Translations under genes and position numbers: made by a program
Notes under the pieces: model-generated
The model's input: only the letters and a program-made list of their open reading frames with translations
Told to the model about the DNA's origin: nothing
The model's database searches: none
In this document: one piece after another, positions 6,240 through 24,448 of the stretch
Layout of the letters: each line of letters starts with the position of its first letter
How positions within the stretch are numbered: position 1 is the stretch's first letter
From: an uncultured Victivallales bacterium
GTDB lineage: Bacteria > Verrucomicrobiota > Kiritimatiellia > UBA8416 > CAYOBW01
Direction: 5' to 3'
Assembly: GCA_964555035.1 (NCBI GenBank)
Contig: CAZKRK010000046.1
Location: forward strand, 1-29,411
Length of the DNA stretch: 29,411 bases

Positions 6240-7589
6240 CTAGCCGTTGAGCGGCCAGCCCTCGCGGTACTTGCGCTTGAAGCAAAGATCCTTCTCCGCT
6301 TCGGGCAAGTTCGTGATACGACCGGTCTTGGGATTGTACTCGATCTTCTTGCCCATGCGGTAGGCCACGAGGCCGAGCATGATGGACTCGAGCATCTTGC
6401 CGGAGTAGTCGAAGTCGCAGGATGTCTTGAGGTCGCCCTTGCAGGCTTTGACCCACTCGCCCTGGAAGTGACCCAGGTTCGGGATCATCTTCTCCTTCTC
6501 ACGCCGGTTGTAGTAGCTCATGTCCGCACTGTCGCCGAACGGAATAAGGAGACGGGACCTGAAATCGCAGATCAGGAAGCCCTTGTCGCCCTTGTACATC
6601 GCGCCGTGGCCGATCTTGTTGACGTCGACCCAGGATCTCGGCGACTTCGGCATCGCGCCACCCTGGTACCAGCTCATACCGATCTCCGGCCGCCAGTCGT
6701 TGGCGGGAAGCTTGCAGTGGACCTCGAGCTTGACCGGTGAAACTTCCGGATTGAACTTCTCGCCCTTGGCGGTGGCCTCGGTTGCGACGTCGGCATCCAG
6801 CGGGTTGAAGCAAAGATCCAGCGTGTGGCTGCCCATATCGCCGATCTGCCCTGTGCCGAAGTCCCAGTACATGTTCCACTTCAGGCAGTTTGCGCCGGGG
6901 CCGCCCGAGAAGTACTCCGGGTGGTAGGGATGGTACGGCGCCGGTCCGAGCCACAGGTCGTAATGCAGGTGGGGAGGCGGCTCGCCCTTGGCCGGATGAT
7001 AGCCGGGCTTCGGAATCTTGCGGTTGCCCCAGGCGTAGGCATGCTTCAGCTCGCCGATGGCTCCGTCCACGATCAGCTCACGGACGCGGTTGAAGTTGGG
7101 GCCGGCGTGGCGCTGCGTGCCGATCTGCGTCGCGAGCTTGTCCTTTTTCTCGTTATAGAGCTCGCGGACCGCGCGACACTCTTCAACGCTGATACCGATC
7201 GGCTTCTCCATGTAGACGTGGAGGTCGCGATTCAGCGCCCATGCGGAAATGTGCGCATGCGTGTGGTCGGGCGTGCAGCAGAGGATCGCATCGAGATTGA
7301 GACTCTTGTCGTCAAGCAGCTTGCGCCAGTCGATATACGTCTTTGCCTTGGGGAACTTCTTGTGCGCCGAGGCGAGGTGGTTCTCGTTAATGTCGCACAG
7401 CGCCACGACATTCTCGCTCTTGATCGAGCCTTGGTGTGCCAGGCCGCGACCCCAGACGCCGATCAGCCCGACGTTGAGCTTGTTGCTGGGAGCGTTCTGC
7501 CCGAACACCGAGATGCTCGGCAGAATGAGAGCCCCGGCTCCCGTGACAGTTGACCGCTGCAGGAATTGACGTCGGTTCATGGTGTGCAC
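6240..7589 (-). CDS. Gfo/Idh/MocA-family NAD(P)-dependent oxidoreductase with a TAT signal
   Basis: The N-terminus contains a TAT signal MNRRQFLQRSTVTGAGALILPS. The Rossmann motif is LNVGLIGVWGRG. The catalytic region is EKPIGISVEE. This family is abundant in Planctomycetota-type genomes. Confidence 0.85.
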   Translation of the reverse strand: MHTMNRRQFLQRSTVTGAGALILPSISVFGQNAPSNKLNVGLIGVWGRGLAHQGSIKSENVVALCDINENHLASAHKKFPKAKTYIDWRKLLDDKSLNLDAILCCTPDHTHAHISAWALNRDLHVYMEKPIGISVEECRAVRELYNEKKDKLATQIGTQRHAGPNFNRVRELIVDGAIGELKHAYAWGNRKIPKPGYHPAKGEPPPHLHYDLWLGPAPYHPYHPEYFSGGPGANCLKWNMYWDFGTGQIGDMGSHTLDLCFNPLDADVATEATAKGEKFNPEVSPVKLEVHCKLPANDWRPEIGMSWYQGGAMPKSPRSWVDVNKIGHGAMYKGDKGFLICDFRSRLLIPFGDSADMSYYNRREKEKMIPNLGHFQGEWVKACKGDLKTSCDFDYSGKMLESIMLGLVAYRMGKKIEYNPKTGRITNLPEAEKDLCFKRKYREGWPLNG

Positions 7590-7738
7590 TCCTTGTAGGT
7601 TACTGGGGTTCCTGGTCCCTCCCGGACAAGAAATCGGATACTAACGAAAAGGAGCCGAACAAATCAAGCACCGGTTCGCTGAGTCCGCGGCCGCGGGCGC
7701 ATCTCGATCTGCTGCACTTGCCGAGTGGCCCCCACCGG

Positions 7739-7784
7739 GATAAGCCCGGCGGGGGGGCCTCGGCAAATGCAACAAATCGGCGCC
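7739..7784 (+). promoter_or_regulatory. About 45-bp upstream motif (gataagcccggcgggg...aaatgcaacaaat) 72 bp before the helicase ATG
   Basis: The motif recurs at 17775-17824, upstream of the lipoprotein gene. It shares the identical 13-mer aagcccggcgggg and an aaRtgcaRcaaat block. The spacing to the ATG is nearly the same (72 vs 68 bp). Confidence 0.4.
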
Positions 7785-7856
7785 ATTGTCAATCCGCCCC
7801 GTTTGTGCCATTTTTCGAGCATTGTGAAGACCTCCACCGAGAACATTGCGGCCGGG

Positions 7857-10800
7857 ATGAGGCAGAACCGGCTCTTTCTCGACCTCGAAACAACCCGGAG
7901 CGGACGCATTCGCAAAGTCGGCGCCGTATTCGGCGATCGTGTTGTGTCGTCGGCACACGACGGGGGCGTGCAACGGGCGCTGTCCATTCTGGACCGAATA
8001 GCCGGCCAGGCCGAGTGCCTCGCGGGACACAACATCGTCGATCACGACCTGCCTGCTCTTCGCCATTGCCGTGCGGACTTGAAACTCCTGCAGGTTCCCG
8101 TGATCGATACGCTCTACCTCTCGCCGATCTGCTTTCCCGAAAATCCCTATCATTGCCTGGTCAAGGACTACAAGTTGGTCTCGGAAACCGTCAGCGATCC
8201 TGTCGAAGACGCCCGCCTGGCCGCAACGCTGTTCGAGGACGAAATCGCGTCTCTGATCGGTATCCGAGAAAGCAGTCCCGAGCTTTTCAAAGCGTTGCAC
8301 CTGCTGACCACAAAGACATCGCCGTCGGATCCCGGATCTCATGCGACCGGAATGAGGCATCTGTTCCGGAGCCTCGGGGCCGACGCGGTCACCGATGACG
8401 CGCTCGAGTGTGTCCGCGGGATGGCGGCGCAGTACGGCTGTCGAACGGCAGCCGTACGCTTGGACCACACGAACCTCACGTCCGCGCAGAAGTGCTGGGC
8501 GCTGGCCTTCGTGCTGACCTGGTTGCGCGTGTCCGGCTCGGATTCCGTCATTCCGCCCTGGGTGCGGCACCGCCACCCGTCCGTCAGCGTATTCCTTCAT
8601 GCGCTCCGGGATGTTCCTTGTGACGACGCGGATTGCCGGTATTGTGCCGAAACCCACAGTCCCGAGAAGCAGCTCAAGCGGTTCTTCGGGTTCGACTGCT
8701 TCCGACCCACGCCGCATGATGGGAACGGCGGCAGCCTGCAACGCCGCATCGTGTTGGCGGGGATGCAGGGAGAATCGCTCCTGGCGATCCTGCCGACAGG
8801 CGGCGGCAAGTCACTCTGCTACCAACTGCCCGCACTTGTCCGCAGCGTCCGGCGAGGGCAGTTGACGGTCGTGATCTCCCCCCTGCAGGCGTTGATGAAA
8901 GACCAGGTGGACGGGCTGCAACGCCGCACCGGCCTTGAAAACGCCGCCGCGCTCTACGGCCTTCTGACGCCGCCCGAGCGTGGTGACGTACTCCGACGTC
9001 TCAGGACAGGTGACATAGCGGTTCTGTACGTATCTCCGGAGCAACTCCGCAACGCTTCCTTCACCAGGGCAATCTCGCAGCGGGAGGTCGGTTGCTGGGT
9101 CGTCGACGAGGCGCATTGCCTGTCGAAATGGGGACACGATTTCCGCCCCGACTACCTCTACATCGGCCGCTTCATGCGCGAGCTCGCCAAGCGTCAGGGA
9201 TGCCCCTTGCCTCCCGTTGCCTGTTTCACCGCCACGGCCAAGCGCGATGTCGCCGAAGAGATCATGGCCTACTTTCAACGTGAGACGGCCATGCCCGTTG
9301 CCCTCTACCAGGGCGGCGTCGAACGCGAGAACCTGTGTTTCGAAGTGCAGACAGTCAGCGCGCCGGCCAAGCTGGGGCGAATCGACGAGTTGCTGCACGA
9401 CCGATTGGATGCGAACGGGAACGAAGGAAGCGCGATCGTCTTTCGTACTACGCGCCGGCTCGCCGAAGAAACGGCCGAGTACTTGTGCAACCAGGGGTGG
9501 CAGGCGGCGTTCTTTCACGCCGGCATGACGCCGCCGGAAAAGAAGCGCACGCAGGACGCGTTTCTCGACGGCGAGCTGCGCGTGATCTGCGCGACGAACG
9601 CGTTCGGCATGGGGATCGACAAGGACGACGTCAGGCTTGTCGTGCACGGCGATTCGCCGGCTTCGATCGAAAACTACCTGCAGGAAGCCGGCCGGGCGGG
9701 CCGTGATCGCGGCCGTGCCGACTGCGTGTTGCTCTATGACGAGGAGGACTGCGAGCAGCAGTTCCGTCTCGGCGCCTTTTCAGAACTGAGCCGGCGCGAT
9801 ATCGCCCAGATTCTGCGCGGGCTCCGTAAAGCCACCCGCACGCACGGCTCGGACAGCGTCGTGATCACGACCGGCGAGCTCATGCGCGACGAGGATGTCG
9901 ACACCACATTCGGGCCCGAAGACCTGTCGGCCGACACCAAAGTACGCGCCGCGATGTCCTGGCTCGAACGTGCCGGCTTCGTCGAACGCAACCAGAATCG
10001 CACCAACGTCTTTCAGGCGCGCCTCCTGGTACGCTCCACCGGGGAGGCGGAGGAGAAGCTCGCGCAGCTCGGCCTGTCCGACGCGGAGTCCCGGCTCTGG
10101 CTCGCCATCGTGCGTGAAATGATCAATGCCGGGGAAACCGACAGCCTGACCGTAGACGGGTTGGCTCTGCTGCCTGAATTCCAAGGCTATCTGAAGACCG
10201 GGGCGGAGTTCATACCGCACCATGTCGTGCGCGAGGGACGCAGCCAGGAGTATCTGAGTTCAAAGGTCCTCAAGGTCCTTAACTCCATGACGAACGTCGG
10301 GATCATGAAGAAGGATACGCTGCTCACCGCGTTCATTGCCTACAAGGTGGCCAACCACTCGCGCGTGCGTTTCGATCGGGTCTGCGCGAGCGATCGCGAA
10401 ATGCTGAAGGTGTTGATGGAAGAAGAGCCCGATCCGGAAGGCTGGCTGCCGCTCAATCTCCGTCTGCTGAACCAGACATTGCTGGATCGCGATGTTTCCG
10501 CGTCACCCCCTTTCCTGCGCAGGTTGTTGCGCAGCTTGAGCGAGGACGGCAAAGGGTTCTCGGGACAAAGGGGCAGCATCGAGTTGCGCCACGTCGGCCG
10601 CGATGCCTATCGGGTTCGGCTGCGGCGCGAGTGGGCACAGATCGCGGAGCTTGCCGAACGCAGGCGTCGCGTGGCCGGTGTGCTGCTCGACGCGATTGTC
10701 TCCAAAGTGCCGTCCGCCACTCCGCCTCGAGCGGACCTCCTCGTGGAGTTCTCTTTCGAAGAACTGACCGCCGCGCTCAACCGGGATCTCGCTCTGCGCT

Positions 10801-13073
10801 CGGACGTCCGCGACATGCAGGCCGCCATCGAACGGGGACTCATGTTCCTGCACGAGCAGAATGTCATTGTCTTGCAGCAAGGACTGGCGGTGTTCCGCTC
10901 GGCCATGACCGTTCGTGTGCTGCCTGAATCGAAAGGGCTGCGCTACACGCAGGACCAGTACCAGGCGCTCGAGCACCACTACCGCGAACGTGTGTTCCAG
11001 GTGCACGTCATGAACGAATACGCCCGGTACGGGATCGAGAAGATCCAGGAGGCGTTGGCTCTGGTTGTGGCATACTTCACAATGGAGAGGGAAGCCTTCA
11101 TTGCCCGCTTCTTCGGATCACGCCGCGAGCTCTTGGAACGTGCAACGACGGCACGCTCATACCGTCGGATTGTCGATGCCCTGGGCAACCGCGAACAGAT
11201 CCGCATCGTGACGGCGCCGCTCAACAAGAACATGCTCATCCTGGCGGGACCCGGATCGGGAAAGACGCGCACCGTCGTCCACCGGTGCGCCTACCTGTTG
11301 CGCGTGAAACGCGTGCGCCCCTCTTCCGTTCTCGTCTGTTGCTTCAACCACAAGGCAGCGCTCGAATTGCGCAGACGCCTCGCGGAGCTTGTCGGCCGCG
11401 ACGCCTGCGGCGTCACGGTTCAGACATACCACGGATTGGCCCTGCGACTGCTGGGGTTCTCGTGCAGCGCGATGAAACCGGACGCTCGCGATTCGCTCGA
11501 CTTCGACAGGTTGATCGTGGACGCCGTGGACCTTCTTGAAGGCGGAAAGGCCGCGGCTGGCCTCGAATCCGACGAAACGCGTGACCGGCTCTTGGCGGGA
11601 TACGAACACATCCTCGTCGACGAGTATCAGGACATCGACGAGGCGCAGTACCATATGATCGGCGCAATCGCCGGGCGGACCCTTGAAGATGGCGATCGCA
11701 AGCTCACCATCCTTGCCGTCGGAGACGATGACCAGTCCATCTACGGTTTCCGCGGCGCGAACGTCACGTTCATTCGCCGTTTCTGCGAAGACTTCGAGGC
11801 CGCCACACACCACCTCGTCGAGAACTACCGGTCTACCCGCTACATCATCGAAGCGGCGAACAGCGTCATTGCCCGCAACCGTGATCGAATGAAGTGCGAC
11901 TTGCCTATTCGCGTTGACGAAGGCCGCCAGCTTTCCCACCCCGGGGGGGCGATTGCCTCACTGCATCCGGAGACAAACGGACGCGTTGCCGTCGTCTCCG
12001 TGCGGGATGACGCCGCACAGGCTGTCGCCGCCGGGACCGAGATTGAGCGGCTTCGGACCCTTGGCGCGAAAGACTGGTCTCGAACGGCAATCCTCTCGCG
12101 AACGCGCCGCGATTTGTCGCTCGTACGCGTCGCGTTGGAGGCGAAATCGATTCCGGTCCAATGGCCTCTGCAGCGCAACAAGCTGCCCTCGATCTACCGA
12201 ATGCGCGAGGTCCATCGTGCTCTCGGCACACTCCGCGAGATGCGAAGCAGCAACAGAACGGCATCGGAGCTCTTCGAGCGCGTCGTCATGCCACCCGGTT
12301 CTTGCGGCAACGCGTGGGCGGGCATGATCGAATCCCTCTTGAGCGCATGGCAGGACGAAACCGGCAACGCCAGCCTTCCCGTTGGTGCTTGCGTCGATTT
12401 CCTCTACGAGTCGCTCGCACAGCGCCGGAGAGACGAACAGTTTGGCGTCGGCGTCGTCCTGAACACGGTCCACGCGGCCAAGGGAACGGAGTACGACCAC
12501 GTTATTCTTTGCGGCGATTGGTCCAATGGGAGCAATGCCGCGGACATCGAAGAAGAACGCCGCGTCTTCTACGTCGGCATGACACGTGCGCGGCATTCGC
12601 TGTGCATTCTCGATCGCGCCGATACGCGCAACCCGTTCCGTGGAGAGCTGGTTGGCCCTTGTTTCGCCCCGCGACATGAGATGGGCCCCGCGAACGGCAA
12701 TCTCGCCTATCGCGACTACACGCTGCTTGGTCTCGATGACATGTTCCTGGACTTTGCGGGCCGGCAGCCGGCCCGCCACCGCGTTCACGAGGCTCTGTCC
12801 GAGCTGAAGCCCGGAGCATCTCTGCAGGCACAAGCGCAGGATGGCCGCGTCTGGCTGGTCCATGGGGCAGGGACAACGATCGGCGCTTTGTCCGCACAGG
12901 CGACAGAACTCTGGCGCGATCGCCTCGACGACATCGACTCGATCCGCGTGGTCGGAATGTACACGCGCCTGCGCGAGGACATCGGCGACAGGAACTTCCT
13001 TGCCCGCATCCGCTGCGACTCGTGGGAAGTCCCGGTCTGCGAGGTCCGCTCCATGCCGGCCGGGCAGGACTGA
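7857..13073 (+). CDS. Giant multidomain DNA helicase: N-terminal DEDDh 3'-5' exonuclease, RecQ-family helicase core, and C-terminal UvrD/PcrA-type SF1 helicase (1738 aa)
   Basis: Exonuclease motifs are Exo I LFLDLETT, Exo II GHNIVDHDLPAL and Exo III DPVEDARLAATLF. RecQ motifs are PTGGGKSLCYQLPA (motif I), VVDEAHCLSKWGHDFRPDY (DEAH plus the RecQ signature) and FHAGMTPPEKKRTQDAFLDGELRVICATNAFGMGIDKDDV, ending at QEAGRAGRD (motifs IV-VI). UvrD motifs are AGPGSGKT (I), ILVDEYQDID (II), VGDDDQSIYGFRGA (III), ENYRSTRYI (IV), VHAAKGTEYDHV (V) and VFYVGMTRARHSL (VI). The start is placed at MRQNRLFLDLETT so that Exo I lies at the N-terminus. The ORF track starts it at 7725. Confidence 0.85.
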   Translation: MRQNRLFLDLETTRSGRIRKVGAVFGDRVVSSAHDGGVQRALSILDRIAGQAECLAGHNIVDHDLPALRHCRADLKLLQVPVIDTLYLSPICFPENPYHCLVKDYKLVSETVSDPVEDARLAATLFEDEIASLIGIRESSPELFKALHLLTTKTSPSDPGSHATGMRHLFRSLGADAVTDDALECVRGMAAQYGCRTAAVRLDHTNLTSAQKCWALAFVLTWLRVSGSDSVIPPWVRHRHPSVSVFLHALRDVPCDDADCRYCAETHSPEKQLKRFFGFDCFRPTPHDGNGGSLQRRIVLAGMQGESLLAILPTGGGKSLCYQLPALVRSVRRGQLTVVISPLQALMKDQVDGLQRRTGLENAAALYGLLTPPERGDVLRRLRTGDIAVLYVSPEQLRNASFTRAISQREVGCWVVDEAHCLSKWGHDFRPDYLYIGRFMRELAKRQGCPLPPVACFTATAKRDVAEEIMAYFQRETAMPVALYQGGVERENLCFEVQTVSAPAKLGRIDELLHDRLDANGNEGSAIVFRTTRRLAEETAEYLCNQGWQAAFFHAGMTPPEKKRTQDAFLDGELRVICATNAFGMGIDKDDVRLVVHGDSPASIENYLQEAGRAGRDRGRADCVLLYDEEDCEQQFRLGAFSELSRRDIAQILRGLRKATRTHGSDSVVITTGELMRDEDVDTTFGPEDLSADTKVRAAMSWLERAGFVERNQNRTNVFQARLLVRSTGEAEEKLAQLGLSDAESRLWLAIVREMINAGETDSLTVDGLALLPEFQGYLKTGAEFIPHHVVREGRSQEYLSSKVLKVLNSMTNVGIMKKDTLLTAFIAYKVANHSRVRFDRVCASDREMLKVLMEEEPDPEGWLPLNLRLLNQTLLDRDVSASPPFLRRLLRSLSEDGKGFSGQRGSIELRHVGRDAYRVRLRREWAQIAELAERRRRVAGVLLDAIVSKVPSATPPRADLLVEFSFEELTAALNRDLALRSDVRDMQAAIERGLMFLHEQNVIVLQQGLAVFRSAMTVRVLPESKGLRYTQDQYQALEHHYRERVFQVHVMNEYARYGIEKIQEALALVVAYFTMEREAFIARFFGSRRELLERATTARSYRRIVDALGNREQIRIVTAPLNKNMLILAGPGSGKTRTVVHRCAYLLRVKRVRPSSVLVCCFNHKAALELRRRLAELVGRDACGVTVQTYHGLALRLLGFSCSAMKPDARDSLDFDRLIVDAVDLLEGGKAAAGLESDETRDRLLAGYEHILVDEYQDIDEAQYHMIGAIAGRTLEDGDRKLTILAVGDDDQSIYGFRGANVTFIRRFCEDFEAATHHLVENYRSTRYIIEAANSVIARNRDRMKCDLPIRVDEGRQLSHPGGAIASLHPETNGRVAVVSVRDDAAQAVAAGTEIERLRTLGAKDWSRTAILSRTRRDLSLVRVALEAKSIPVQWPLQRNKLPSIYRMREVHRALGTLREMRSSNRTASELFERVVMPPGSCGNAWAGMIESLLSAWQDETGNASLPVGACVDFLYESLAQRRRDEQFGVGVVLNTVHAAKGTEYDHVILCGDWSNGSNAADIEEERRVFYVGMTRARHSLCILDRADTRNPFRGELVGPCFAPRHEMGPANGNLAYRDYTLLGLDDMFLDFAGRQPARHRVHEALSELKPGASLQAQAQDGRVWLVHGAGTTIGALSAQATELWRDRLDDIDSIRVVGMYTRLREDIGDRNFLARIRCDSWEVPVCEVRSMPAGQD

Positions 13074-13139
13074 GTTCGTCGATCGCTCCGCCTATGCCGC
13101 CCCTCCGGGGCTTGTTTCCATGCTCGACGCATGTGCGGC

Positions 13140-13251
13140 AAACGTAGGTCCGATTTGCAATCGGACCCAACTCCGGTCGGGTCTGGTCAGCCGTGGCGTT
13201 ATCTGAGGCAACCAGCGGGGTTGGGTCCGATTGCAAATCGGACCTACGTTT
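13140..13251. repeat. MITE-like element with perfect 32-bp TIRs (13140-13171 and 13220-13251), each with an inner hairpin ggtccgatt-tgc-aatcggacc
   Basis: IR-L aaacgtaggtccgatttgcaatcggacccaac is the exact reverse complement of IR-R. The spacer is 48 bp. The inner hairpin has the same architecture as the 1856-1984 element, with two compensatory stem changes (c:g to t:a and g:c to c:g). It lies between the convergent helicase genes. Confidence 0.75.
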
Positions 13252-13350
13252 ACCGCTCACGCACGTTCCGGCCCTCGGGGAGTCACGAAGCATCCGCTTC
13301 TTCCGCACGAAGGTGTCACAGTTGTTTCCGAGAGGTAAGGTAGTCTGGGC

Positions 13351-16122
13351 CTACGGTCGCGCCAACTCCGCCTCGACGCGCGCGACGAGGTCCAGTCCCT
13401 CTTGGAGAGCACCATCGCCGTCGCTTCCGCCGCCGTCGAAGGCGGCCAGGGCAGAGACGAGGGCTGCGGGTTCTGTCGGGAGCTCGGAACCGTCGCCGTC
13501 GGGCTTTGTTCCGGGACCGTGGTGCAGGACGACGACCGCTTCGCGCCCCGCTCCCAGAACCGTCGCAAGGTGCGGGAGTGCCTGCTCCGCAAGACCCACA
13601 CCCGCCAACGCCTCGACGGCCTTGCGCTCGGCTGCGGTCGTTGCCCAGACCTTGCGTGCCGCGGCACGGTGGAGCTTCGGCTTGGGCCGTTCCCGCGGGG
13701 GCAATGGCGTGTAGCCGTCGGCGGCATGTACCGTATCGATGTCGGCGGACAGCGTGAGGATGCCCATTTCCTGAAGCCGCAGCAGCATCGCGTGCATCTC
13801 CGGCGTAATGACCTCGGCCGTGGCGCCTGCCGCCTCGGCCGTATCGCGAAGCGCATCGAGGTCCGTTCCGGGGCGCGACACGACTACCGTCCCGCCGGTT
13901 TTGGCGTTGCGTTCGATGCCGAGGATGATGTCCGCGTGGCGCGCCGTGAGTTCTTCCTTCAGTGTCCTGGGTTTCTCTTCGCGAGCCGGTGGGGCAGGCG
14001 CCACGGGCTCCCCGCCCAGCAATTCGCCGACGCGCGCCGCAAAGGCCTGGCGACCGGTTTTGCCGCTCGGCCGTTCCTCGAACGCGGCCCCGTCCAGCAC
14101 GGAGTCGGCCAGCGCGGTCTTGTACGCCAACTTGTCGAGCATGGCGCTTTCGATCGAGCGTTCCGCGACCAGGTTGACGACGCGCACGCTTCGCTTCTGG
14201 TGCTTGCGCCAGGCCCGCGCGATGCGCTGCTCCAGCTTCGCCGGATTCCAGGGCAGGTCGAGGTTGATCACGATGTTCGCGGCCTGCAGGTTCAGACCCG
14301 CGCCGCCTGACTCGGACGAGAGAAACACGCGGCAGTCGGCATTCTGCTTGAACATGCGGATCTGCTCGCGCCGTTTCTGCTGGGGGATTCTGCCGGTGTG
14401 TTCCGCGAACCCGATTCCTTTTGCGGTCAGCAGTTCCTTTACGAGGTCGAGCATGCGCACCCACTCCGAGAATATGATGACCTTCGCCTCCGGGTCGTCA
14501 CCCAGCAGGTCGTCGAGGATGTTCTCCAGCTCCTCCAGCTTCGGACAGTCACGGCACTCGGGGTCAAGGATGTAGGGCGTGTCGCAGATCATGCGCATGC
14601 AACCCAGCAAGAGCAGAAGGCGTTCCTGCTCCTTCTTCGTCAACGGGCGCCGTTTCATGATCGAAACGAGCATGGCCACGTCGTATTCGATCTCGGCATA
14701 GCGCGCCCGCTGCTCTTTTGTCATGGAAACGAAGAAGTTCTTGTCGGTACGTTCCGGCAAGGCGTCTTCGACGTCGCTCTTGCGGCGGCGCAACATCACC
14801 GACGAGACCGTGCGGTGCAGCTTGTCCAGGTTCCTGGGGCGGACCTCGTTGTCGGAAGTGAGTTCCATAAACGCGCGCTGAAAACGGAAGAGCGACCCGA
14901 ACACGTGTGGGTCGACGAACTCGACCAACGAGTACAACTCCTCGATGCGGTTTTCCAAGGGCGTTCCGGTCAGCACGAATGCGTATGGACTGCGCACCCG
15001 CTTGATCGTTTTGGCGGTCTTCGTGGGCCAGTTCTTGATGCGTTGCGCCTCATCGAGGATGACGAGGTCCGGAACGAGCAGGCGGTTGATATCGTCCACG
15101 TCATTGCGTACCTGCTCGTAGTTGCAGAGGCTGTACGGATGCTCCTCGGCATAGAGGCGCAGGCGGGCGGGCCGCGATCCGAAGACCGGCTTGGCCTGGC
15201 GGCCGGTGAACTGCATGATCTGGTCCTCCCACTCCGCCTTGAGCGAAGCGGGGCTGACCACCAGCACGCGGCGCACGCGGCCGGACTGGCGCAGCAGCTC
15301 GGCGGCGGCAATCGCCTGCACCGTCTTGCCGAGCCCCATCTCGTCGGCCAGCAGGGCGCGACCGGTGAAAGCCAGATGTGCCATGCCCGCTTTCTGATAG
15401 GGGTACAAGGGAAGGACAACGGGGTTGTCGGTGCGTTTGGCGGCTGCCACGTCGCGATCGAAATGCCGCCGCAGCTCGTCAAGGTCCGTCCTGAACCTCT
15501 CTCGCTCGAGCCAGTAGTCGACGTGTTCGGACAGACGCACGCCCTTCCGCGCCGATGCGGTGAGCATGGCCGTGGCGCGTTCCGCGGCCGTGCACGCGTC
15601 CGTATTGCCGGCCAGGGCGAAGCCTTCATCGCCGAACAGCGACCCCACGCGCCTCTCGACCGCGGCGATGCCCGCTGCCGGCCGCAACAGGCGCAACCGC
15701 GGATTGGGTCCGCGAACGTCCATGAAAATCTCGTAGGCAGGCGATCCCGCCTTTGCCGCGCGGGCAAAGGCGCGCTTCTTGCGGTGCTGGATGAACTGCC
15801 GCACACGCTCGATGTGCTTGCAGCACCCGAGGCGGTTCATGCGGTAGTCCTGACACGAACAACTGTTCAGGTTCTCCGACAGACTCCGAATCTCGACGCG
15901 GTAGGGTTGCTCCCACTGCGTGGACGAGACCTCGAAGAGACCGTGGAAATCGTCACGCATCGCCACGCGGGTGACCTGCGCCTTTTCCTTCTCGGCACTC
16001 TCGCGCCGCAGCACGATGCTCTGCTCATCCGTCGGAAAGCCAACCCGTTTCGGTGGCCGTTTCTGGACCTGTTTGGCCTTCTTGCTTCTGCGTTTCTTCC
16101 GCGTCTTCCGTTCCAAGCTCAT
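13351..16122 (-). CDS. SNF2-family (Swi2/Snf2) DNA-dependent ATPase/helicase with an N-terminal SWIM zinc finger
   Basis: The SWIM finger is CSCQDYRMNRLGCCKH. SNF2 motifs are LADEMGLGKT (I), LVILDEAQRIKN (II, DEAQ), VLTGTPLENRIEELYSLVEFV (III), and the C-terminal helicase domain LSSESGGAGLNLQAANIVINLDLPWNPAKLEQRIARAWRKHQ. A basic N-terminal tail and an Ala/Gly-rich region of about 250 aa at the C-terminus are uncharacterised. Confidence 0.9.
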   Translation of the reverse strand: MSLERKTRKKRRSKKAKQVQKRPPKRVGFPTDEQSIVLRRESAEKEKAQVTRVAMRDDFHGLFEVSSTQWEQPYRVEIRSLSENLNSCSCQDYRMNRLGCCKHIERVRQFIQHRKKRAFARAAKAGSPAYEIFMDVRGPNPRLRLLRPAAGIAAVERRVGSLFGDEGFALAGNTDACTAAERATAMLTASARKGVRLSEHVDYWLERERFRTDLDELRRHFDRDVAAAKRTDNPVVLPLYPYQKAGMAHLAFTGRALLADEMGLGKTVQAIAAAELLRQSGRVRRVLVVSPASLKAEWEDQIMQFTGRQAKPVFGSRPARLRLYAEEHPYSLCNYEQVRNDVDDINRLLVPDLVILDEAQRIKNWPTKTAKTIKRVRSPYAFVLTGTPLENRIEELYSLVEFVDPHVFGSLFRFQRAFMELTSDNEVRPRNLDKLHRTVSSVMLRRRKSDVEDALPERTDKNFFVSMTKEQRARYAEIEYDVAMLVSIMKRRPLTKKEQERLLLLLGCMRMICDTPYILDPECRDCPKLEELENILDDLLGDDPEAKVIIFSEWVRMLDLVKELLTAKGIGFAEHTGRIPQQKRREQIRMFKQNADCRVFLSSESGGAGLNLQAANIVINLDLPWNPAKLEQRIARAWRKHQKRSVRVVNLVAERSIESAMLDKLAYKTALADSVLDGAAFEERPSGKTGRQAFAARVGELLGGEPVAPAPPAREEKPRTLKEELTARHADIILGIERNAKTGGTVVVSRPGTDLDALRDTAEAAGATAEVITPEMHAMLLRLQEMGILTLSADIDTVHAADGYTPLPPRERPKPKLHRAAARKVWATTAAERKAVEALAGVGLAEQALPHLATVLGAGREAVVVLHHGPGTKPDGDGSELPTEPAALVSALAAFDGGGSDGDGALQEGLDLVARVEAELARP

Positions 16123-16269
16123 GTGCGCCTCAATACGTTGTCCGTGAATAAGCGATGTCCGGCAAGACTAGCCATGGAGAGGGGCGGGGTGCAAGAACTC
16201 TCGCAACCCTAACGACAGAAACGTGACCGATGACGTGGGGTAGCCATAGAAGCAAGCTCGCCGGCGCTC

Positions 16270-16297
16270 AGGCTCACACCTTGTAAAGTGTGAGCCT
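16270..16297. terminator. Hairpin aggctcacac-cttgtaaa-gtgtgagcct overlapping the ArsR stop codon
   Basis: It has a 10-bp perfect stem. It is nearly identical to the palindrome at 16897-16930 at the other end of the same gene. Confidence 0.5.
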
Positions 16298-16907
16298 ACC
16301 CCTCCATGCAAGCGATTCGTACCAACTCATGCGCAAGAGGCGATAACTTCCGCGCCAGGGCGTATGTCCCGCGTTGGTTCCGGACGACAATGTCACGGCG
16401 CACCAGTTTGCTCACATGACGCTTCATCGCCGGCAGAGAAATGCCGCATCGAACAACCAGTGCCACAATCGACAACCCCGGCGAGCGATTCAGTTCCCGC
16501 ACGATCCGGATGCGTCTAGGATGTGTGAAAGCTGTAAGGTTCCGAAACGCCCCCTCGATGGCGCCTAGGCGCCTGGAAAGCTGTCGTTTCATCGCGGTGA
16601 CAAGGGCCTCGGAAAACGAGATCGTGCTGTTTGGAGACACAGTGTACACGACCCAACGACTCGTCCGCCGCGCATCCAGGATGCCTCTGGCGTTGAGAGC
16701 CCGAAGACATTGGCTCGCACTGGATTCCGATATGCCTACCTGCGCGGCGACATCGGAGACGCACTGCCGTTGATGTCGAAGCAGAAACCGCAACACAGCG
16801 AGCCGTCTCCGGTTCGCCAATGCCCGGCATGTGCGCCAAAGCGTAGGACTGAGTGAACGCGCGTTCTCCATACCATCTCCAAGTAGACACCTCAACGCCA
16901 GGCTCAC
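16296..16907 (-). CDS. Transcriptional regulator with two tandem ArsR/SmtB-type winged-HTH domains
   Basis: The first wHTH is CRALANRRRLAVLRFLL...VSDVAAQVGISESSASQCLRALNARGIL. The second is RRIRIVRELNRSPGLSIVALVVRCGISLPAMKRHVSKLVRRDIV. The track start is a GTG at 16907. An internal ATG start (MENARSL) at 16871 is possible. Confidence 0.7.
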   Translation of the reverse strand: MSLALRCLLGDGMENARSLSPTLWRTCRALANRRRLAVLRFLLRHQRQCVSDVAAQVGISESSASQCLRALNARGILDARRTSRWVVYTVSPNSTISFSEALVTAMKRQLSRRLGAIEGAFRNLTAFTHPRRIRIVRELNRSPGLSIVALVVRCGISLPAMKRHVSKLVRRDIVVRNQRGTYALARKLSPLAHELVRIACMEG

Positions 16908-16930
16908 ACGTTATAAGGTGTGAGCCTGGC
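16897..16930. promoter_or_regulatory. 13-bp-stem palindrome gccaggctcacac-gttataag-gtgtgagcctggc overlapping the ArsR start region (candidate operator)
   Basis: It is identical in core to the 16270-16297 hairpin (caggctcacac ... gtgtgagcct, loop ttRtaaRg). ArsR-family proteins bind dyad-symmetric operators that overlap their own promoters. Confidence 0.5.
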
Positions 16931-17062
16931 GTCAATCAGAAACTCGTGGCATCGGCATCCAAGCCAGGTTCCTTGACTGCGGCGACTACTACGACGTTGG
17001 TCTTGACAAGTACTGCCCACTGAGCGCTGGGATGGCAGAAGTCCTTACCTCGTGGAACTATC

Positions 17063-17170
17063 GGTGACACCATTGATTGATGATTCCCGATTGATGATTT
17101 GTGATTTTCGAAGTACTTCACAAATCATCAATCATAAATCGCTAGTCATCAATCAGACGAAGGTGTCACC
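17063..17170. repeat. AT-rich compound palindrome of about 108 bp (ggtgacacc ... ggtgtcacc) with internal gattgatgatt direct repeats and perfectly complementary arms ttgatgatttgtga/tcacaaatcatcaa around ttttcgaagtactt
   Basis: Seen directly. It is very AT-rich against a background of about 67% GC. It lies in the shared upstream region of the ArsR gene and the lipoprotein gene. Confidence 0.6.
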
Positions 17171-17360
17171 TTCATTTTCCGCGGTGCAGTCATCCCGGTC
17201 AGAGCGTAGATTCAACGTAGCCGCCCAGAGGACAAGTGTTTGCGACGAAGCCACGGTTCTGTGTGCGGCCGGGCGGGGTAAGGTTCTCTGGATGGAGTAG
17301 AAGGAAGTCCTCGTCTGTTTCCCAAAGTGCACTCACGTTTGCTCTCAACGCCGGTGTCGC

Positions 17361-17460
17361 CCACAACCCAAGTGTGGCATAGGTAGAAAAACGGGAAGGT
17401 AAGAAGATGGGAGAATTGACGGCATCATCTTTCTACCATCCCATCTTTCTGCCTATCATC
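17361..17460. repeat. Copy 1 of a 100-bp conserved structured element (the second copy is at 28361-28460)
   Basis: It shares 76 of 100 identities with 28361-28460, gap-free and collinear. It folds as an extended hairpin. The outer stem is ggtagaaaaacggg/cccatctttctgcc and the inner stem is ggtaagaagatg/catctttctacc. Each arm is a tandem duplication of a GG(Y)AGAAARATGGG-like unit. The loop contains a conserved attgaSgg. Confidence 0.6.
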
Positions 17461-17575
17461 TCCTACACAGGGCTTGGCCAGATTTCTAGTTCTTCTTGCG
17501 CCCCTCGCCCGGCTAAGCCACTACGCCTCGGCCGGGACTTCTCCCGGCAGAGGGGGGCCGCATTCGTGGGCAGTC

Positions 17576-17636
17576 CATTGATGATTGTCGATCGCCGATT
17601 GCCGATTTCTGAAGTTCGAAAACCAGCAATCAGACC
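17576..17636. repeat. Degenerate, more GC-rich relative of the 17063-17170 AT-rich palindrome
   Basis: The blocks cattgatgatt, ccgattg, gatttctgaagttcgaaaa and caatcagac run collinear with the left element. Confidence 0.4.
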
Positions 17637-17705
17637 GGACTGCGCGTCGTCGTCACTGCAGACTGAACAGTCTTTTGCCTATTCGCCCGCTGTAGGCGGC
17701 CTAGC

Positions 17706-17732
17706 GGCGGAGGACCGCCGTCTCCAGTGGCG
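17706..17732 (+). promoter_or_regulatory. 27-bp motif ggcggaggaccgccgtctccagtggcg, copy a
   Basis: The same motif, with one substitution, occurs at 20940-20966, 20 bp upstream of the membrane-protein ATG. It also occurs inverted at 20828-20849. It contains the inner dyad ggcgg-N4-ccgcc. Confidence 0.5.
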
Positions 17733-17774
17733 TCTCCGCAGGGCGCGTAGTCGCTTTCTGTGTGTAATAGGCAG

Positions 17775-17824
17775 GACAAGCCCGGCGGGGCTACTCTGAA
17801 AGTGCAGCAAATTGCAGATGCGCC
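17775..17824 (+). promoter_or_regulatory. Second copy of the aagcccggcgggg...aaRtgcaRcaaat upstream motif, 68 bp before the lipoprotein ATG
   Basis: See the 7739-7784 feature. The 13-mer is identical and the spacing to the start codon is conserved. Confidence 0.4.
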
Positions 17825-17892
17825 CAGCGGCAGCGTACGCTCATAACACTCTTGCCCCCGCCGCGCCTCTCGTGCATGCTTACCGGGAGCGC

Positions 17893-20811
17893 ATGAAAAG
17901 CAGCCCTTTCACACCTATCCGCCTTCTCCACCTCGCCGTCGCAGGCACAATCGCCGCCTGCGCCGGGGGATGTCGTGAGGAACAGGAACAGTCGCCGCGC
18001 CGGGCGTTCGAGCTCGACCTGCGCGATCGCGGAGTCGTGCTGCAGCGGATTACCTACGGGCTGCCCGAAGAGTCGACCGCACGCGTCATACGCTTCGACC
18101 GGCGCGGGTTGCTGCGCTGTGCCCTCTACCTGCGCGACAGCAGCGACGAGAACTCGTTCATATACGTGGACCACGTTGGTGTGGTCACCCGGAACGGCAG
18201 GATTGCGACGACCTTGAAGGAGTACGGGGAATTGCTGGTGACGGGCGACCAACAGGCCCTCTACATCGACGGTACGCCTTTGCCCGTCAACACAAAGGGA
18301 TGGGACACGTTCTGGGTGTCCGCTGACGAAGCCGAACCGGACGTGACCCAGAGAACGTATGCCCCCGTGGACCTGTTCGACAGCTTCATGCGCACCGAGC
18401 TGACGAACGGCTTCTGCCGCGTGACCGACGGTTCCTGGGAGCTCAAACAACGCGGCGGCGGAATGCCGACGGAGGAAGAGGACTACCACAACGCCAGTTT
18501 TCAGCGGGCCGTCAACCCCTTCTCCATCCGGGGCGAAGAGCAGGGCCGGTTGACGTACGGTGACGACGATTGGATGAACTATCACGCTGAGGCGAGCTTC
18601 TACTTCGGCATACCGCGAACGATAAGCTGGAGCGATGCAGAGAACCTGCCCGTCGAAACGGACATGCTCATCGCGCAGGGCACGACCAACGGAAACCAGG
18701 TAGCGTTCGGCTGGTCCGGGCGCCATCGCGGATTCGTCCTCATGTCCCGTAGCGGTTCGTCCCTCTGGAAGGTGCTCGAACGCTGGGGCGGCAAGCGTCC
18801 CCCGCTGACGAACTGGTGCCGTATCGGTCTGCGCATCCACGCCGGCTATATCGCCGAAGGCATGCTCGACCGCAAAGCCGTACTGCGCACAAACCTGGCC
18901 ACGTGCATTGTCGGTCCATTCCACGTCATTGCGGGAGAGGCCCCCATCGAGGCCGACACGATTCGCGCCTACTCCCTGCCGCCAAAGCCGAACCTGGGCG
19001 ATACGGCGCACGTCAAGAGCCGCTTCTTCTCGGCCAAGAAGGAGCTCGGCAAATCCCGCGACCCGACGCAGTTCGGGGAGTGGTCCAAGTCTACCAGCGT
19101 TTTCGTGGAGTCACGCGAGACCGATACCAACGGCAATCACAAGGCCGTCATCACGATGCGGGTGCCGCTCATGGGCGACTTCACGGTCGACTCGGTGCCG
19201 TTCGACGACGAGGCCGGCGCCATACCGCCGGGCCCGTACGAGTTCGCCTTCCGGATAGCCGATACAAACGAGTTCGAGGCCATCATGGAGCATCCGCCGG
19301 TCCTCTCGCTGAAGGCCAGGCTCTCAGGCACGGGCTGGGCGCTTGAAGACCTGCCGGAAGATGTCTGGCCCGCGGGCCACCGCGAATTCGCTCTCCGCTT
19401 CGCCCGGCGAAGGGCCGAGGACAACAGGATCGTCGTTCTCTGCGGCGGGTCTGCGACGCCGCTTTCGCCCCCGCTGACGGAGCCGTTGCTCGTATCGGTT
19501 GCGCGCGTGGAAAAGGGCGGCAAACCGGATTACCCGTTCCCGCAGCATCACCTCATCCGTTGCGCAAACCTCGCAAACGAGTTGTTCGAGGAAGCGCCGG
19601 CGGATTGGAGCTGGATCGAAGGCGCCTTCCGCATGGATTGCCGCTGGGCCTGCATGAACCAGTGGAATTTCATGGCGTGCGGCTCGCCCGGCATCCCCTA
19701 CATGACCAGCAAGCGGACTTTCACGGGCGACCAGGTGCACGAGTGCTTCATGTCGTTGCGGCCGGCCCAGCCCTGCGACGCGTACGACAAGGACTTCTTC
19801 TATGACCGCAAAAAGGACGGCGGTCTCAGGCTGTTCCGCGCCAACGGCGGCTGGTACAACCGACGCGATCTCAACGTCTGTTTCTGCACCAACGGCCGCG
19901 ACCCCCTTTCCGGCTACAGCATCGTGTTTGCCGGGAGAGACAACAAGGAGACGTTTCTCCTGCGCAAAGGACGCGTCGTGGCTGCCTCCCAGAACAAGAA
20001 GTTCCTCTTCCACGGCACAAGCCATTCGAGCGTTCACTGGAAATGGTGGAAGTTCACGGTCGACAAGCGTGGCGGCCGTATCCGGTGTTCGCTCAACGAC
20101 ACCGTTATGTTTGACTATCACGATCCCGAGCCGATTCCCGGGGGACACCTTGGTTTCTGGTCCGTGCGCAACGGCTTCACGCTGGCACGCGTCATTTCCG
20201 TCGCCGAATCGGTCGGTTTGGAGCCGCACGCCCTGTTCGTAGGTGACGATGAGGACAGCCCGTGGGTGCCCCTCAAGCGCGACAGCGTTGTTGTCACGCG
20301 CTCATCCGGGGCCGGACTCACCCGCGCCACCGCCACCGTAGGCGGCGGGTTCTTCGCCATGCGCTACACGCTCCCCGTTCCGGTCGATTTGAACAAAACG
20401 CCCGTCATGAAACTGCCGCTTGACATCGGCTACGAAGCGGCCGTGAATCTTCACGCCGATATCGGCGGCACCGCATACGTGATTCCCCTGACGGCGCCCA
20501 TCTCCGAGATGAAAGCGTTGCTGGCCCCGGAATTCGAAAAGGGAGAGTGTTTCAAAATCCCGACCATCGACGAAGCCGTCATTCTACAGACGCGCTACCT
20601 TCGCAACGCCCGCCTGACTCACAATCTGTTGACCGTGGACTTCGCCGCGGCCCTGGAGGAGACCGGCGAGAAGCCCGAGACGCTGGAGCTCAGGAGCATC
20701 ACCATCGGCAACAGCAGCAACCAGGGCTACCTGTTGGCCGGAGCGAACGGCAGAAACGCGGCCGGCGCATGGTACGAAGTAGGTGTGCCCACATTCCGGA
20801 CACGTCAGTAA
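17893..20811 (+). CDS. Large secreted lipoprotein (973 aa) with ConA/LamG-like (DUF1080-like) beta-sandwich signatures; function unknown
   Basis: The lipoprotein signal MKSSPFTPIRLLHLAVAGTIAAC has a lipobox. LamG/glucanase-like C-terminal strands are present (GGHLGFWSVRNGFTLARV and FGWSGRHRGFVLM). The start is placed at the internal Met. The track ORF begins at 17812. Confidence 0.65.
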   Translation: MKSSPFTPIRLLHLAVAGTIAACAGGCREEQEQSPRRAFELDLRDRGVVLQRITYGLPEESTARVIRFDRRGLLRCALYLRDSSDENSFIYVDHVGVVTRNGRIATTLKEYGELLVTGDQQALYIDGTPLPVNTKGWDTFWVSADEAEPDVTQRTYAPVDLFDSFMRTELTNGFCRVTDGSWELKQRGGGMPTEEEDYHNASFQRAVNPFSIRGEEQGRLTYGDDDWMNYHAEASFYFGIPRTISWSDAENLPVETDMLIAQGTTNGNQVAFGWSGRHRGFVLMSRSGSSLWKVLERWGGKRPPLTNWCRIGLRIHAGYIAEGMLDRKAVLRTNLATCIVGPFHVIAGEAPIEADTIRAYSLPPKPNLGDTAHVKSRFFSAKKELGKSRDPTQFGEWSKSTSVFVESRETDTNGNHKAVITMRVPLMGDFTVDSVPFDDEAGAIPPGPYEFAFRIADTNEFEAIMEHPPVLSLKARLSGTGWALEDLPEDVWPAGHREFALRFARRRAEDNRIVVLCGGSATPLSPPLTEPLLVSVARVEKGGKPDYPFPQHHLIRCANLANELFEEAPADWSWIEGAFRMDCRWACMNQWNFMACGSPGIPYMTSKRTFTGDQVHECFMSLRPAQPCDAYDKDFFYDRKKDGGLRLFRANGGWYNRRDLNVCFCTNGRDPLSGYSIVFAGRDNKETFLLRKGRVVAASQNKKFLFHGTSHSSVHWKWWKFTVDKRGGRIRCSLNDTVMFDYHDPEPIPGGHLGFWSVRNGFTLARVISVAESVGLEPHALFVGDDEDSPWVPLKRDSVVVTRSSGAGLTRATATVGGGFFAMRYTLPVPVDLNKTPVMKLPLDIGYEAAVNLHADIGGTAYVIPLTAPISEMKALLAPEFEKGECFKIPTIDEAVILQTRYLRNARLTHNLLTVDFAAALEETGEKPETLELRSITIGNSSNQGYLLAGANGRNAAGAWYEVGVPTFRTRQ

Positions 20812-23008: not shown

Positions 23009-24448
23009 ATGGACACGATAATCGGGCGAGAAGCGGAAAAACGAGTGCTGAGGGCGGCACTCGAATCGGGTGAGGCCGAGTTCATCGCCGTATACGGACG
23101 CCGGCGAGTGGGCAAGACTTACCTTGTCAGTCGGTTCTTCGACCGGGCCGCTTTCTACTTCGAGTTAACCGGCACGCGTGACGGGCCGCTGCACGAGCAA
23201 CTGGCGAACTTTGCGGACGTTCTTGGACGCAAGGCCGGTCTGGATTTGGCTGTGCCGAAAAGCTGGGCCGAGGCGTTTCGGCAGCTCGTTCGCGTGTTGG
23301 AGGCCCGGCCGGCCGCGGGGAAACGCGACCGAACCGTTCTCTTTTTCGATGAAACTCCCTGGCTGGCCTCACGACGCTCGCGCTTCTTGTCGGCGCTGAG
23401 CTATTTCTGGAACTCCTGGGCCGGTCGGCGCCCCGACATCGTCTTGATCGTCTGCGGTTCGTCGGCGTCCTGGATGCTGGAAAAGGTAGTGGCCGACAGA
23501 GGAGGCCTGCACAACCGTCTTACGCGACGAATTCGTCTGATGCCTTTCACATTGCAAGAGACGGAGGCCTTCTTGCGATCGCGTGGCGTGCGGCTCGACC
23601 GACGACAGATTATCGACGTCTTCATGGTGGCCGGCGGCATTCCTCAATACCTGAAGCAAGTCGAGCCGGGACGGTCGTCGGCGCAGAGCATCGATGCGAT
23701 GTGCTTCCAGCCGGATGGCTTCCTGTACGACGAGTTCGATCGCCTGTACGCTTCCCTGTTCCATGATTCGGCCAAGCACATTGCCGTTGTCCGTGCGTTG
23801 GCGAAAACGCGTTCAGGGTTGTCGCGAACGGCACTGTTGAAACGGGCCGGTCTCGCATCGGGCGGAACGTCGACACGGGTTCTGACCGCGCTCGAAGAGT
23901 CGGGCTTCATTGCCCGGCACGTACCCTTCGGCCAGAGAGTCAACAACGCGCGATACCGGCTGATCGACGAGTACAGTCTCTTCTACCTTACCTGGATGGA
24001 GGGGAAGCGGCACGACTTGCTGAGCGAGTCGTGGTCGACGCAGTCGCAGTCCCGGCGGTGGTCAGCCTGGGCGGGGTTCAGTTTCGAGGGAGTGTGTTGG
24101 AAGCATGTCGACCGGATTACAGCCGAGTTGGGCATAGCCGGAGTACAGACCAGAGCGTCGACGTGGCAGCACAGAGGCGGTCCGGGAGAACAAGGTGCGC
24201 AGATCGATTTGCTCATAGACCGTGCGGACCGATGTATCTCGATCTGCGAAATCAAACACGGTGAAGGTGTTTTTGCCATTGACCGGAAGTACGCGGCCGA
24301 ACTGAGACGCAAGCTGGACGTGTTTCGCCTGCAATCGGGCACCCGCAAGACCCTGTTTCTGGTGATGGTCACGCCGAGCGGTTGCAAGCACAACGACTAT
24401 TTCACGCAGTTGGTGACTGACGAAGTGCGTCTGGAGTGCTTGTTCTGA
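23009..24448 (+). CDS. AAA+ ATPase of the Arch_ATPase/DUF234 family (COG1672-like ATP-binding protein)
   Basis: Walker A is YGRRRVGKTYL and Walker B is VLFFDETPW. The C-terminal DUF234-like region is WAGFSFEGVCWKHV...IDLLIDRADRCISICEIK. The gene is slightly less GC-rich than its neighbours. Confidence 0.8.
   Translation: MDTIIGREAEKRVLRAALESGEAEFIAVYGRRRVGKTYLVSRFFDRAAFYFELTGTRDGPLHEQLANFADVLGRKAGLDLAVPKSWAEAFRQLVRVLEARPAAGKRDRTVLFFDETPWLASRRSRFLSALSYFWNSWAGRRPDIVLIVCGSSASWMLEKVVADRGGLHNRLTRRIRLMPFTLQETEAFLRSRGVRLDRRQIIDVFMVAGGIPQYLKQVEPGRSSAQSIDAMCFQPDGFLYDEFDRLYASLFHDSAKHIAVVRALAKTRSGLSRTALLKRAGLASGGTSTRVLTALEESGFIARHVPFGQRVNNARYRLIDEYSLFYLTWMEGKRHDLLSESWSTQSQSRRWSAWAGFSFEGVCWKHVDRITAELGIAGVQTRASTWQHRGGPGEQGAQIDLLIDRADRCISICEIKHGEGVFAIDRKYAAELRRKLDVFRLQSGTRKTLFLVMVTPSGCKHNDYFTQLVTDEVRLECLF

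Follow-up and report, generated by a model that had tools for sequence, protein, structure and literature searches.

Repressors of the ArsR/SmtB family that control their own genes, such as SmtB, CzrA, NolR, HlyU, and BigR/SqrR, are chains of about 100 to 120 amino acids (aa) that work as homodimers, and their canonical operator is a 12-2-12 inverted repeat placed over the promoter of the repressor gene. Two inverted repeats are also present in the smtA operator-promoter. Here, we describe a gene on the minus strand of contig CAZKRK010000046.1 from an uncultured Victivallales bacterium (29,411 nucleotides, hereafter the window), which encodes a 191-aa regulator and is bracketed by two near-identical palindromes that we call P1 and P2. 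Its product is predicted to have the ArsR/SmtB fold in each of its domains, and a 12-2-12 repeat likewise covers its predicted promoter. In contrast to the known members, however, two diverged folds are fused in one chain, a second copy of the putative operator is added at the 3′ end of the gene, and the family, as judged by its source-named members, is restricted to bacteria of the Planctomycetes-Verrucomicrobia-Chlamydiae (PVC) group.

Other described repressors share single features of this arrangement. LacI (O1, O2, and O3), GalR (OE and OI), and DeoR pair a promoter operator with a similar one that lies tens to hundreds of base pairs away on either side, for which cooperative looping is the standard explanation; they belong to other protein families, and a loop at our locus would enclose the regulator's own whole gene. 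The phage lambda CI gene likewise lies between operator regions, OL and OR, that interact over a long range through its product. Unlike cI, the window gene is not phage-borne, has no divergent lytic promoters, carries a single dyad per end instead of a triple operator, and encodes a different fold. A fused internal duplication replacing the homodimer of winged helix-turn-helix (wHTH) proteins is also found in the two-domain SarA homologues SarS, SarU, and SarY of Staphylococcus, but these belong to the SarA/MarR-like subfamily and to another phylum, and they use other operators. We know of no self-bracketing site pair for them.

The comparison of related loci presented below suggests that the dyad pairing is most likely the mark of a two-operator self-repression circuit and not of chance or a generic repeat, because the same pairing is found at the majority of related genes in the PVC group. 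We propose that the two-domain ArsR/SmtB-type repressor probably binds both palindromes, P2 being the operator for autorepression and P1 an auxiliary operator.

Two near-identical palindromes bracket the regulator gene

The regulator gene occupies positions 16296 to 16871 of the minus strand, from an ATG at 16871 to a TAG at 16298 to 16296, as called in the database and supported by the family alignment. P1 (CAGGCTCACAC-cttgtaaa-GTGTGAGCCTa, 16269 to 16298) has 11-nt arms with a single mismatch at the final base. P2 (GCCAGGCTCACAC-gttataag-GTGTGAGCCTGGC, 16897 to 16930) has perfect 13-nt arms and could be extended in a repeat search to 19+19 nt with 95% complementarity (16895 to 16932). In the direction of this minus-strand gene, P2 is thus upstream and P1 downstream. 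P1 shares 1 to 3 nt with the stop codon, the G of which is the first base of GGCTCACAC, and is located 147 bp upstream of the ATG (16122) of a co-directional SNF2 helicase gene. No perfect 10-8-10 palindrome other than P1 and P2 exists in the 29.4-kb window; of 20 shuffled versions, 19 had none and one had a single such palindrome. With an expected count of about 1e-8 for this particular dyad, the pair is far beyond chance.

An initial annotation of this DNA had reported two near-identical palindromes around the regulator gene, one of them overlapping the stop codon, and both observations were reproduced from the sequence, the former also by the repeat search. The palindromes exist as it described them, apart from its loop strings, which were off by one base, an immaterial difference. 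On the other hand, its statement that the other palindrome overlaps the 5′ start of the gene did not hold. The start is almost certainly ATG 16871, giving 191 aa, and not GTG 16907, which opens a 203-aa open reading frame (ORF), because the database gene calls and the family alignment agree on the ATG. P2 therefore sits 25 nt upstream, in the promoter, without overlapping the start codon.

Paired dyads recur at homologous loci

We compared 80 metagenomic loci obtained from a scan with the family alignment, with homologues 39 to 54% identical. A site was defined as CACAC-N8-GTGTG with at most one mismatch, and downstream sites were counted from −40 to +200 of the stop codon. A dyad was found directly before the gene in 72 of the 80 homologues, 0 to 140 bp past the stop in 42 of 75, and at both gene ends in 39 of 74, and about 15 homologues had a second upstream dyad 75 to 207 bp further out. 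Among the 61 unique loci with two flanks, 48 combined a promoter site with one or more auxiliary sites, which were downstream in 34, distal upstream in 11, and in both places in 3. Two or more like putative operators per promoter, with the auxiliary ones lacking TTGAC, are a layout shared with looping repressors. The density of sites was 1.62 per kb at the gene and 0.042 per kb in the remaining 283 kb of flanks. The possibility, named beforehand in the initial annotation, that the dyad is a generic intergenic repeat fails against this 38-fold enrichment in the 80 loci, although at least 16 copies are dispersed in one metagenome-assembled genome (MAG).

The closest relative (P0002, 81% identical) has both dyads in the same register, one 27 nt before the ATG and the other overlapping the TAG, and its neighbors, encoding an extracytoplasmic function (ECF) sigma factor and an alpha-2-macroglobulin, differ from those in the window. 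Nucleotide similarity between the two loci runs from TTGACG, the predicted −35 box, to the last base of the downstream dyad. At locus L054, the downstream dyad is in the register of P1. Loci fetched independently with database gene calls gave both sites for three homologues (P0003, P0005, and P0026) and the promoter site only for one (P0101).

Across phylum-level distances, the CACAC/GTGTG core does not vary. The 16 positions that do vary, i.e., the outer bases and the spacer, were 85% identical between copies from the same locus compared with 50% between loci, a same-locus identity reached by 0 of 5,000 permutations. Several of the protein columns that covaried most with the variable operator bases are in or next to the recognition helices (N60, P147, K150, C55, and E49), which is only weakly suggestive because residue-base covariation is confounded by phylogeny. 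At one locus (L092, 2107 to 5090), a pair of paralogous regulator genes is separated by about 2.3 kb and a single intervening ORF, and each gene is bracketed by its own dyad variant (GTCT..TTTGCAAA..AGAC and TTCT..ATTATAAT..AGAA); the distinct variants suggest that the paralogues are diverging in operator specificity.

With arms of 11 to 13 bp around an 8-bp spacer and exactly one gene between them, the palindromes resemble the 13-8-13 core sites of site-specific recombinases (dif-, lox-, or attC-like) and might bound an excisable or invertible cassette. We regard this as extremely improbable. No recombinase gene was called within 10 kb on either side, and the spacers of P1 and P2 differ at 2 to 3 of 8 positions instead of being identical and asymmetric, as in tyrosine recombinase core sites. 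Many spacers of the family are palindromic and therefore directionless, which also argues against recombination sites. Moreover, instead of flanking the gene, the second site often lies upstream of it, and the upstream site is a promoter element.

The upstream dyad is embedded in a conserved promoter

A predicted −35 box, TTGACG (16930 to 16935, minus strand), starts 13 nt before the CACAC of P2, is kept in L054, and coincides with a family-wide peak of TTGAC. After a 16-nt spacer follows the predicted −10 hexamer TAACGT (16908 to 16913, minus strand), which consists of the final four spacer nucleotides of P2 and the GT of its gene-side arm and is thus inside the palindrome. The same plan is seen throughout the family: TTGAC begins 13 to 15 nt before CACAC at promoter-proximal sites only, auxiliary or downstream dyads lack a −35 box, and the final four bases of the spacer together with GT make up a −10-like nAAAGT. 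A strict scan for sigma-70 promoters and terminators called nothing at P1 or P2, so the promoter was recognized only through the family comparison. The autoregulatory role that the initial annotation had suggested for the upstream copy gains strong comparative support from this conserved promoter, in which the dyad is embedded in 72 of 80 homologues.

The first in-frame ATG lies 2 to 6 nt past GTGTG in 39 of 62 unique loci, which implies a leaderless mRNA; with this spacing of site and ATG, the −35 hexamer begins about 35 nt ahead of the first base of the ATG, a spacing that is textbook for leaderless promoters. In most homologues, the operator would accordingly cover roughly −25 to −1 of a leaderless promoter. 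The window gene has a predicted 5′ leader of about 25 to 29 nt (16872 to 16900, minus strand), drawn from the sequence and the L054 alignment, with a Shine-Dalgarno GGAG (16880 to 16877) 5 nt before the ATG. This leader is shared by L054, and most homologues have none; the window promoter is best described as having gained a leader on top of the family plan. At five loci (L064, L066, L068, L082, and L116), the gene-side arm of the promoter-proximal site is GTATG instead of GTGTG, with a perfect GTGTG in the downstream copy, which places an ATG inside the operator, just before the annotated ATG.

A symmetry profile of 119 sites showed complementarity of about 12 to 13 bp per half-site. Among the inner twelve pairs, the central one had the lowest symmetry in each of the three site classes, and the dyad is therefore a 12-2-12 inverted repeat. 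P2, the predicted primary operator, has the core GGCTCACACGTT-AT-AAGGTGTGAGCC at 16901 to 16926, and P1, the predicted auxiliary operator, has the core GGCTCACACCTT-GT-AAAGTGTGAGCC at 16271 to 16296. A 12-2-12 repeat with half-sites such as these (GGCTCACACGTT and GGCTCACACCTT), overlapping the gene's own promoter, is what is found at ArsR/SmtB operators.

The palindromes might also act as RNA or DNA hairpins, P1 as a terminator without a U-tract or as a stabilizer of the mRNA 3′ end and P2 as a 5′ hairpin, in which case their likeness would be structural. Both fold very stably (−29.7 and −33.5 kcal/mol, with z-scores of −4.1 and −6.1), and at many auxiliary copies, the complementarity continues into locus-specific flanks by up to 16 bp, with compensatory changes in the flank bases. 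However, P1 lacks the directly following U-tract of an intrinsic terminator, there being no T-run after it on the gene strand or after the homologous downstream sites. The −35 box in front of the dyad and the ATG 2 to 6 nt behind it make the upstream dyad of most homologues untranscribed promoter DNA, which also argues against hairpins. Structure alone would not require the invariant CACAC/GTGTG core, a hairpin loop would not need the palindromic spacer center, and two hairpins could serve one gene with different sequences. We consider this explanation unlikely as the main one, although the second copy may make a roadblock or hairpin contribution. An Rfam scan of positions 15800 to 18200 (expect value [E] of ≤1) returned spurious microRNA-type matches only.

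A second operator would most likely support autorepression

According to our proposal, the single-chain regulator would bind P1 and P2 through the invariant CACAC...GTGTG core. P2 is predicted to span from the −35 box to the transcription start and to include the −10 hexamer, so a protein bound at this position would exclude RNA polymerase, resulting in negative autoregulation. P1 would be a second operator for the same protein, without a promoter, that most likely raises the occupancy of P2, either through cooperative binding or through a DNA loop of roughly 630 bp enclosing the whole gene, and it may also stop transcription leaving or entering the regulator gene. DNA looping between P1 and P2 specifically, suggested by analogy with LacI, GalR, and DeoR, is a tentative possibility. 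The auxiliary site can be upstream or downstream, which speaks against a purely 3′-end role, and a position-independent role (cooperativity, looping, or a raised local repressor concentration) would therefore fit the second copy best.

The initial annotation had offered three explanations for the copy at the stop codon, namely that it is a further operator, that it is a terminator, or that it delimits a cassette. The first is favored by the downstream dyads in 42 of 75 homologues, their replacement by upstream ones elsewhere, the bases common to each locus, the missing U-tract, and the convergent orientation of half of the downstream neighbors. A cassette is weakly supported by the similarity to the 81% relative, which is bounded by the −35 box and the downstream dyad, and no evidence of mobility was found.

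An explanation that needs no cooperation with P2 is that P1 mainly controls neighboring transcription, as an operator or roadblock for read-through into the SNF2 gene or as a shield from convergent transcription. P1 does lie between the regulator gene and the same-strand SNF2 gene with no recognizable terminator between them, the next gene is also co-directional at L054 and L185, and at L080 and L083, five dyads in an array occupy the interval up to a uvrA-like gene. Nevertheless, the downstream neighbor was convergent in 15 and co-directional in 17 of 32 loci with a downstream site; convergence at L187 and L188 was confirmed by database gene calls. A gene caller based on the GC content of third codon positions (GC3) missed the regulator itself, and the neighbor calls made with it are crude. 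The downstream genes have no common function, no −35 box accompanies the downstream dyads, and 11 of 61 unique loci have their auxiliary site upstream instead of downstream. On this balance, control of the neighbors as the main role of P1 is unlikely. A conserved target gene was also sought and rejected, as the genes beside the downstream sites and beside the copies dispersed in the MAG CALGXT01 are functionally unrelated.

Several points weigh against two-operator autorepression. Protein binding, repression, and cooperation between P1 and P2 are inferred, and the support for binding is indirect, coming from the co-occurrence of gene and dyads, the bases common to each locus, and covariation. 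The recognition helices of the two domains differ though the sites are strictly two-fold symmetric; either one pseudo-dimeric chain occupies each dyad, with both domains reading the same half-site, or two chains do, and in the latter case, the domains left over could reach across to a second dyad. No helical phasing was seen in the upstream pairs (R of 0.29 and P of about 0.3), and the downstream pairs gave a weak hint of it (R of 0.33 and P of about 0.02) from non-independent loci. A single site suffices in 8 of 61 loci, and the extra complementary flanks of some auxiliary sites, up to 16 bp, would also suit a hairpin or a terminator. Finally, the dyads of CALGXT01, at least 16 in number, stand by unrelated genes and in a repeat of about 150 nt, looking more like a repeat family than a regulon.

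The predictions comprise an operator (12-2-12 with a CACAC/GTGTG core), a mostly leaderless promoter plan, and an unusual wiring in which a repressor gene would be enclosed by its own operators, and for the poorly studied and mostly uncultured PVC bacteria, they offer a testable cis-element and a motif-search route to regulons. The locus-specific outer bases are a natural data set on the coevolution of operator specificity and fused pseudo-dimer repressors, and the locus-specific dyad variants may serve as orthogonal repressor-operator pairs. The general significance is moderate because autorepression through a palindrome is textbook knowledge and the core mechanism would be conventional; the comparative result is solid and testable.

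The regulator is predicted to contain two complete ArsR/SmtB folds

The regulator comprises two complete ArsR/SmtB winged-helix folds in one chain, with domain 1 at about residues 9 to 98 and domain 2 at about residues 100 to 189. Pfam matches (HTH_5, HTH_20, HTH_24, and MarR_2) were found at residues 34 to 78 and 128 to 176, and the NCBIfam model HTH_metalloreg (NF033788) matched two stretches with 85 bits against a cutoff of 55, in line with the initial annotation of the protein as an ArsR-type tandem-wHTH regulator. In a sequence search of PDB, domain 1 led to NolR, SmtB, and HlyU, and domain 2 led to YgaV. An AlphaFold2 (AF2) model based on 31 homologues had a predicted local distance difference test (pLDDT) score of 95.6 and a predicted template modeling (pTM) score of 0.89, with the order a1-a2-a3-aR-b1-b2-a5 occurring twice. 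Each half of the model aligned to ArsR/SmtB structures in Foldseek with template modeling (TM) scores of about 0.6 to 0.7 relative to the targets. Foldseek found no full-length structural match in PDB, single domains only; its whole-chain alignments to RPC62 and SelB, with a root mean square deviation (rmsd) of about 15 Å, are meaningless.

The two halves are 24% identical in register, and their recognition helices differ (SASQCLRAL and AMKRHVSKL). The family carries the signatures PTLWRTCRALANRRRL and TAFTHPRR. No known metal or thiol sensor motif of ArsR proteins (a3N or a5 metal site, or Cys pair for sensing persulfide or redox state) was recognized in the family alignment. The only invariant candidate ligands in alignment A1 are C15 and H117, which we regard as candidate sensor residues for a repressor-releasing signal. 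No catalytic domain was found with Pfam, NCBIfam, or the AF2 model. Membership of the regulator in a defense system was rejected, since PADLOC gave generic wHTH matches only (Csa3/CasR HTH).

The family consists of 422 clusters at 50% identity (E of ≤1e-10), all of the members being about 190 aa long. Those named by source come from MAGs of Kiritimatiellae, Lentisphaeria (Lentisphaerae), Verrucomicrobiota, and Planctomycetes. Searches of the literature on the dyad sequence, on ArsR proteins in tandem or duplicated form, and on Kiritimatiellae ArsR palindromes returned nothing relevant on the family or the dyad, and the family is uncharacterized as far as the searchable literature goes. A phage origin of the unit is disfavored, as no homologue was found among 2.9 million viral contigs; single matches to CTCACAC-N8-GTGTGAG do occur in them.

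Dispersed dyads occur in a few genomes

The MAG CALGXT01 (R1_Bin_METABAT__307_1, loci L001 to L041) contains at least 16 exact copies of GGCTCACACTTTGCAAAGTGTGAGCC, several of them at contig ends. Many of these copies are inside a dispersed repeat of about 150 nt with the consensus ...TATGGCCGAG..GGGGCGAGACCTCGCTTTCGCCCCGCGCGTCGGGGAGCGATGTC..., and they adjoin unrelated genes, such as those for a sulfatase, shikimate kinase, mevalonate decarboxylase, and a NuoF-like protein. A regulator homologue adjoins only one of them (L018). In a contig of Lentisphaerales (L022, CAYLNH010000082), at least seven dyads (GACTCACACTTTGCAAAGTGTGAGTC or its GGCT variant) at 6000 to 6660, 170 to 800 bp upstream of the regulator homologue, are spaced about 65 to 145 bp apart in higher-order repeats, the array being broken by a masked run of N. 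At L080 and L083, at least five copies of cttgCAGACTTCGCAAAGTGTGcaag with a 92-bp period lie at about 3430 to 4420, between the regulator homologue and the uvrA-like gene, and no recognizable dyad is upstream of the regulator.

Copies of this kind would be expected if the dyad were a dispersed repeat like repetitive extragenic palindromic (REP) sequences, their paired form (REPIN), or miniature inverted-repeat transposable elements (MITE), and if the gene with its flanking copies were a self-propagating or mobilized cassette resembling the genes for REP-associated tyrosine transposases (RAYT) between their REPs. The mostly intergenic copies in CALGXT01, the arrays in L022 and L080/L083, and the occurrence of the unit in different genomic contexts, with similarity stopping at the dyads, agree with this. 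REP/REPIN sequences with RAYT transposases likewise combine a gene flanked by palindromes with dispersal in the genome, seen here in one MAG. In contrast to them, the window protein is a DNA-binding protein only, with a wHTH and no catalytic domain, and the dyads are essentially confined to the gene in the 80 loci (0.042 sites per kb elsewhere). REPs are lineage specific, whereas the core of the dyad is kept across Kiritimatiellae, Lentisphaerae, Verrucomicrobiota, and Planctomycetes. The upstream copy is integral to the promoter, the position of the second copy varies, and no homologue appeared among the viral contigs. CALGXT01 excepted, neither many dispersed copies, nor a lineage-specific sequence, nor a transposase was found, and we judge a mobile cassette to be highly improbable.

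A related idea is that the regulator is a DNA-bridging factor with dyads that spread, the gene and its dyads being a self-contained module. The gene with two dyads would then seed arrays, as in L022 and L080/L083, and dispersed units of about 150 nt, as in CALGXT01. We consider this improbable. If true, it would be a REPIN/RAYT-like or nucleoid-organizing partnership in which a winged-helix binder takes the place of a transposase.

Two winged-helix domains in one chain, autorepression through an inverted repeat in their own promoter, which we only propose for the window regulator, and extra site arrays, here restricted to L022 and L080/L083, are also characteristic of the iteron-plasmid initiators RepA, RepE, and pi. 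Unlike these, the window regulator has an ArsR-type fold and no Rep_3-type Pfam match, the contexts of the family are chromosomal and variable, and the window shows no origin features and no iteron array, with two dyads only.

Genomic neighborhood of the regulator gene

The surroundings of the regulator gene in the window are defense-like (7725 to 16122 and 23009 to 24448). They include a SNF2/SWIM helicase resembling ZorD/DpdE (E of 3e-62), a 1,782-aa fusion of DpdF-like and UvrD/GajB-like parts (E of 1e-106), and a full-length match to the PADLOC candidate PDC-S27 (E of 4e-181), with RtcB and RtcA further along the contig. These defense-like neighbors are not conserved partners of the regulator homologues.

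An AT-rich imperfect palindrome of about 108 bp is located at 17063 to 17170, with a partial copy at 17577 to 17632, in this window of 63% GC, and consists of ATTGATGA-type repeats between GGTGACACC and GGTGTCACC. Two contigs of the same organism (L051 and L052) start within this element. Contig L053 matches the window with 100% identity as far as 17158, beyond which it continues with unrelated sequence. The behavior of these contigs marks the element as an assembly or strain breakpoint that lies outside the regulator unit.

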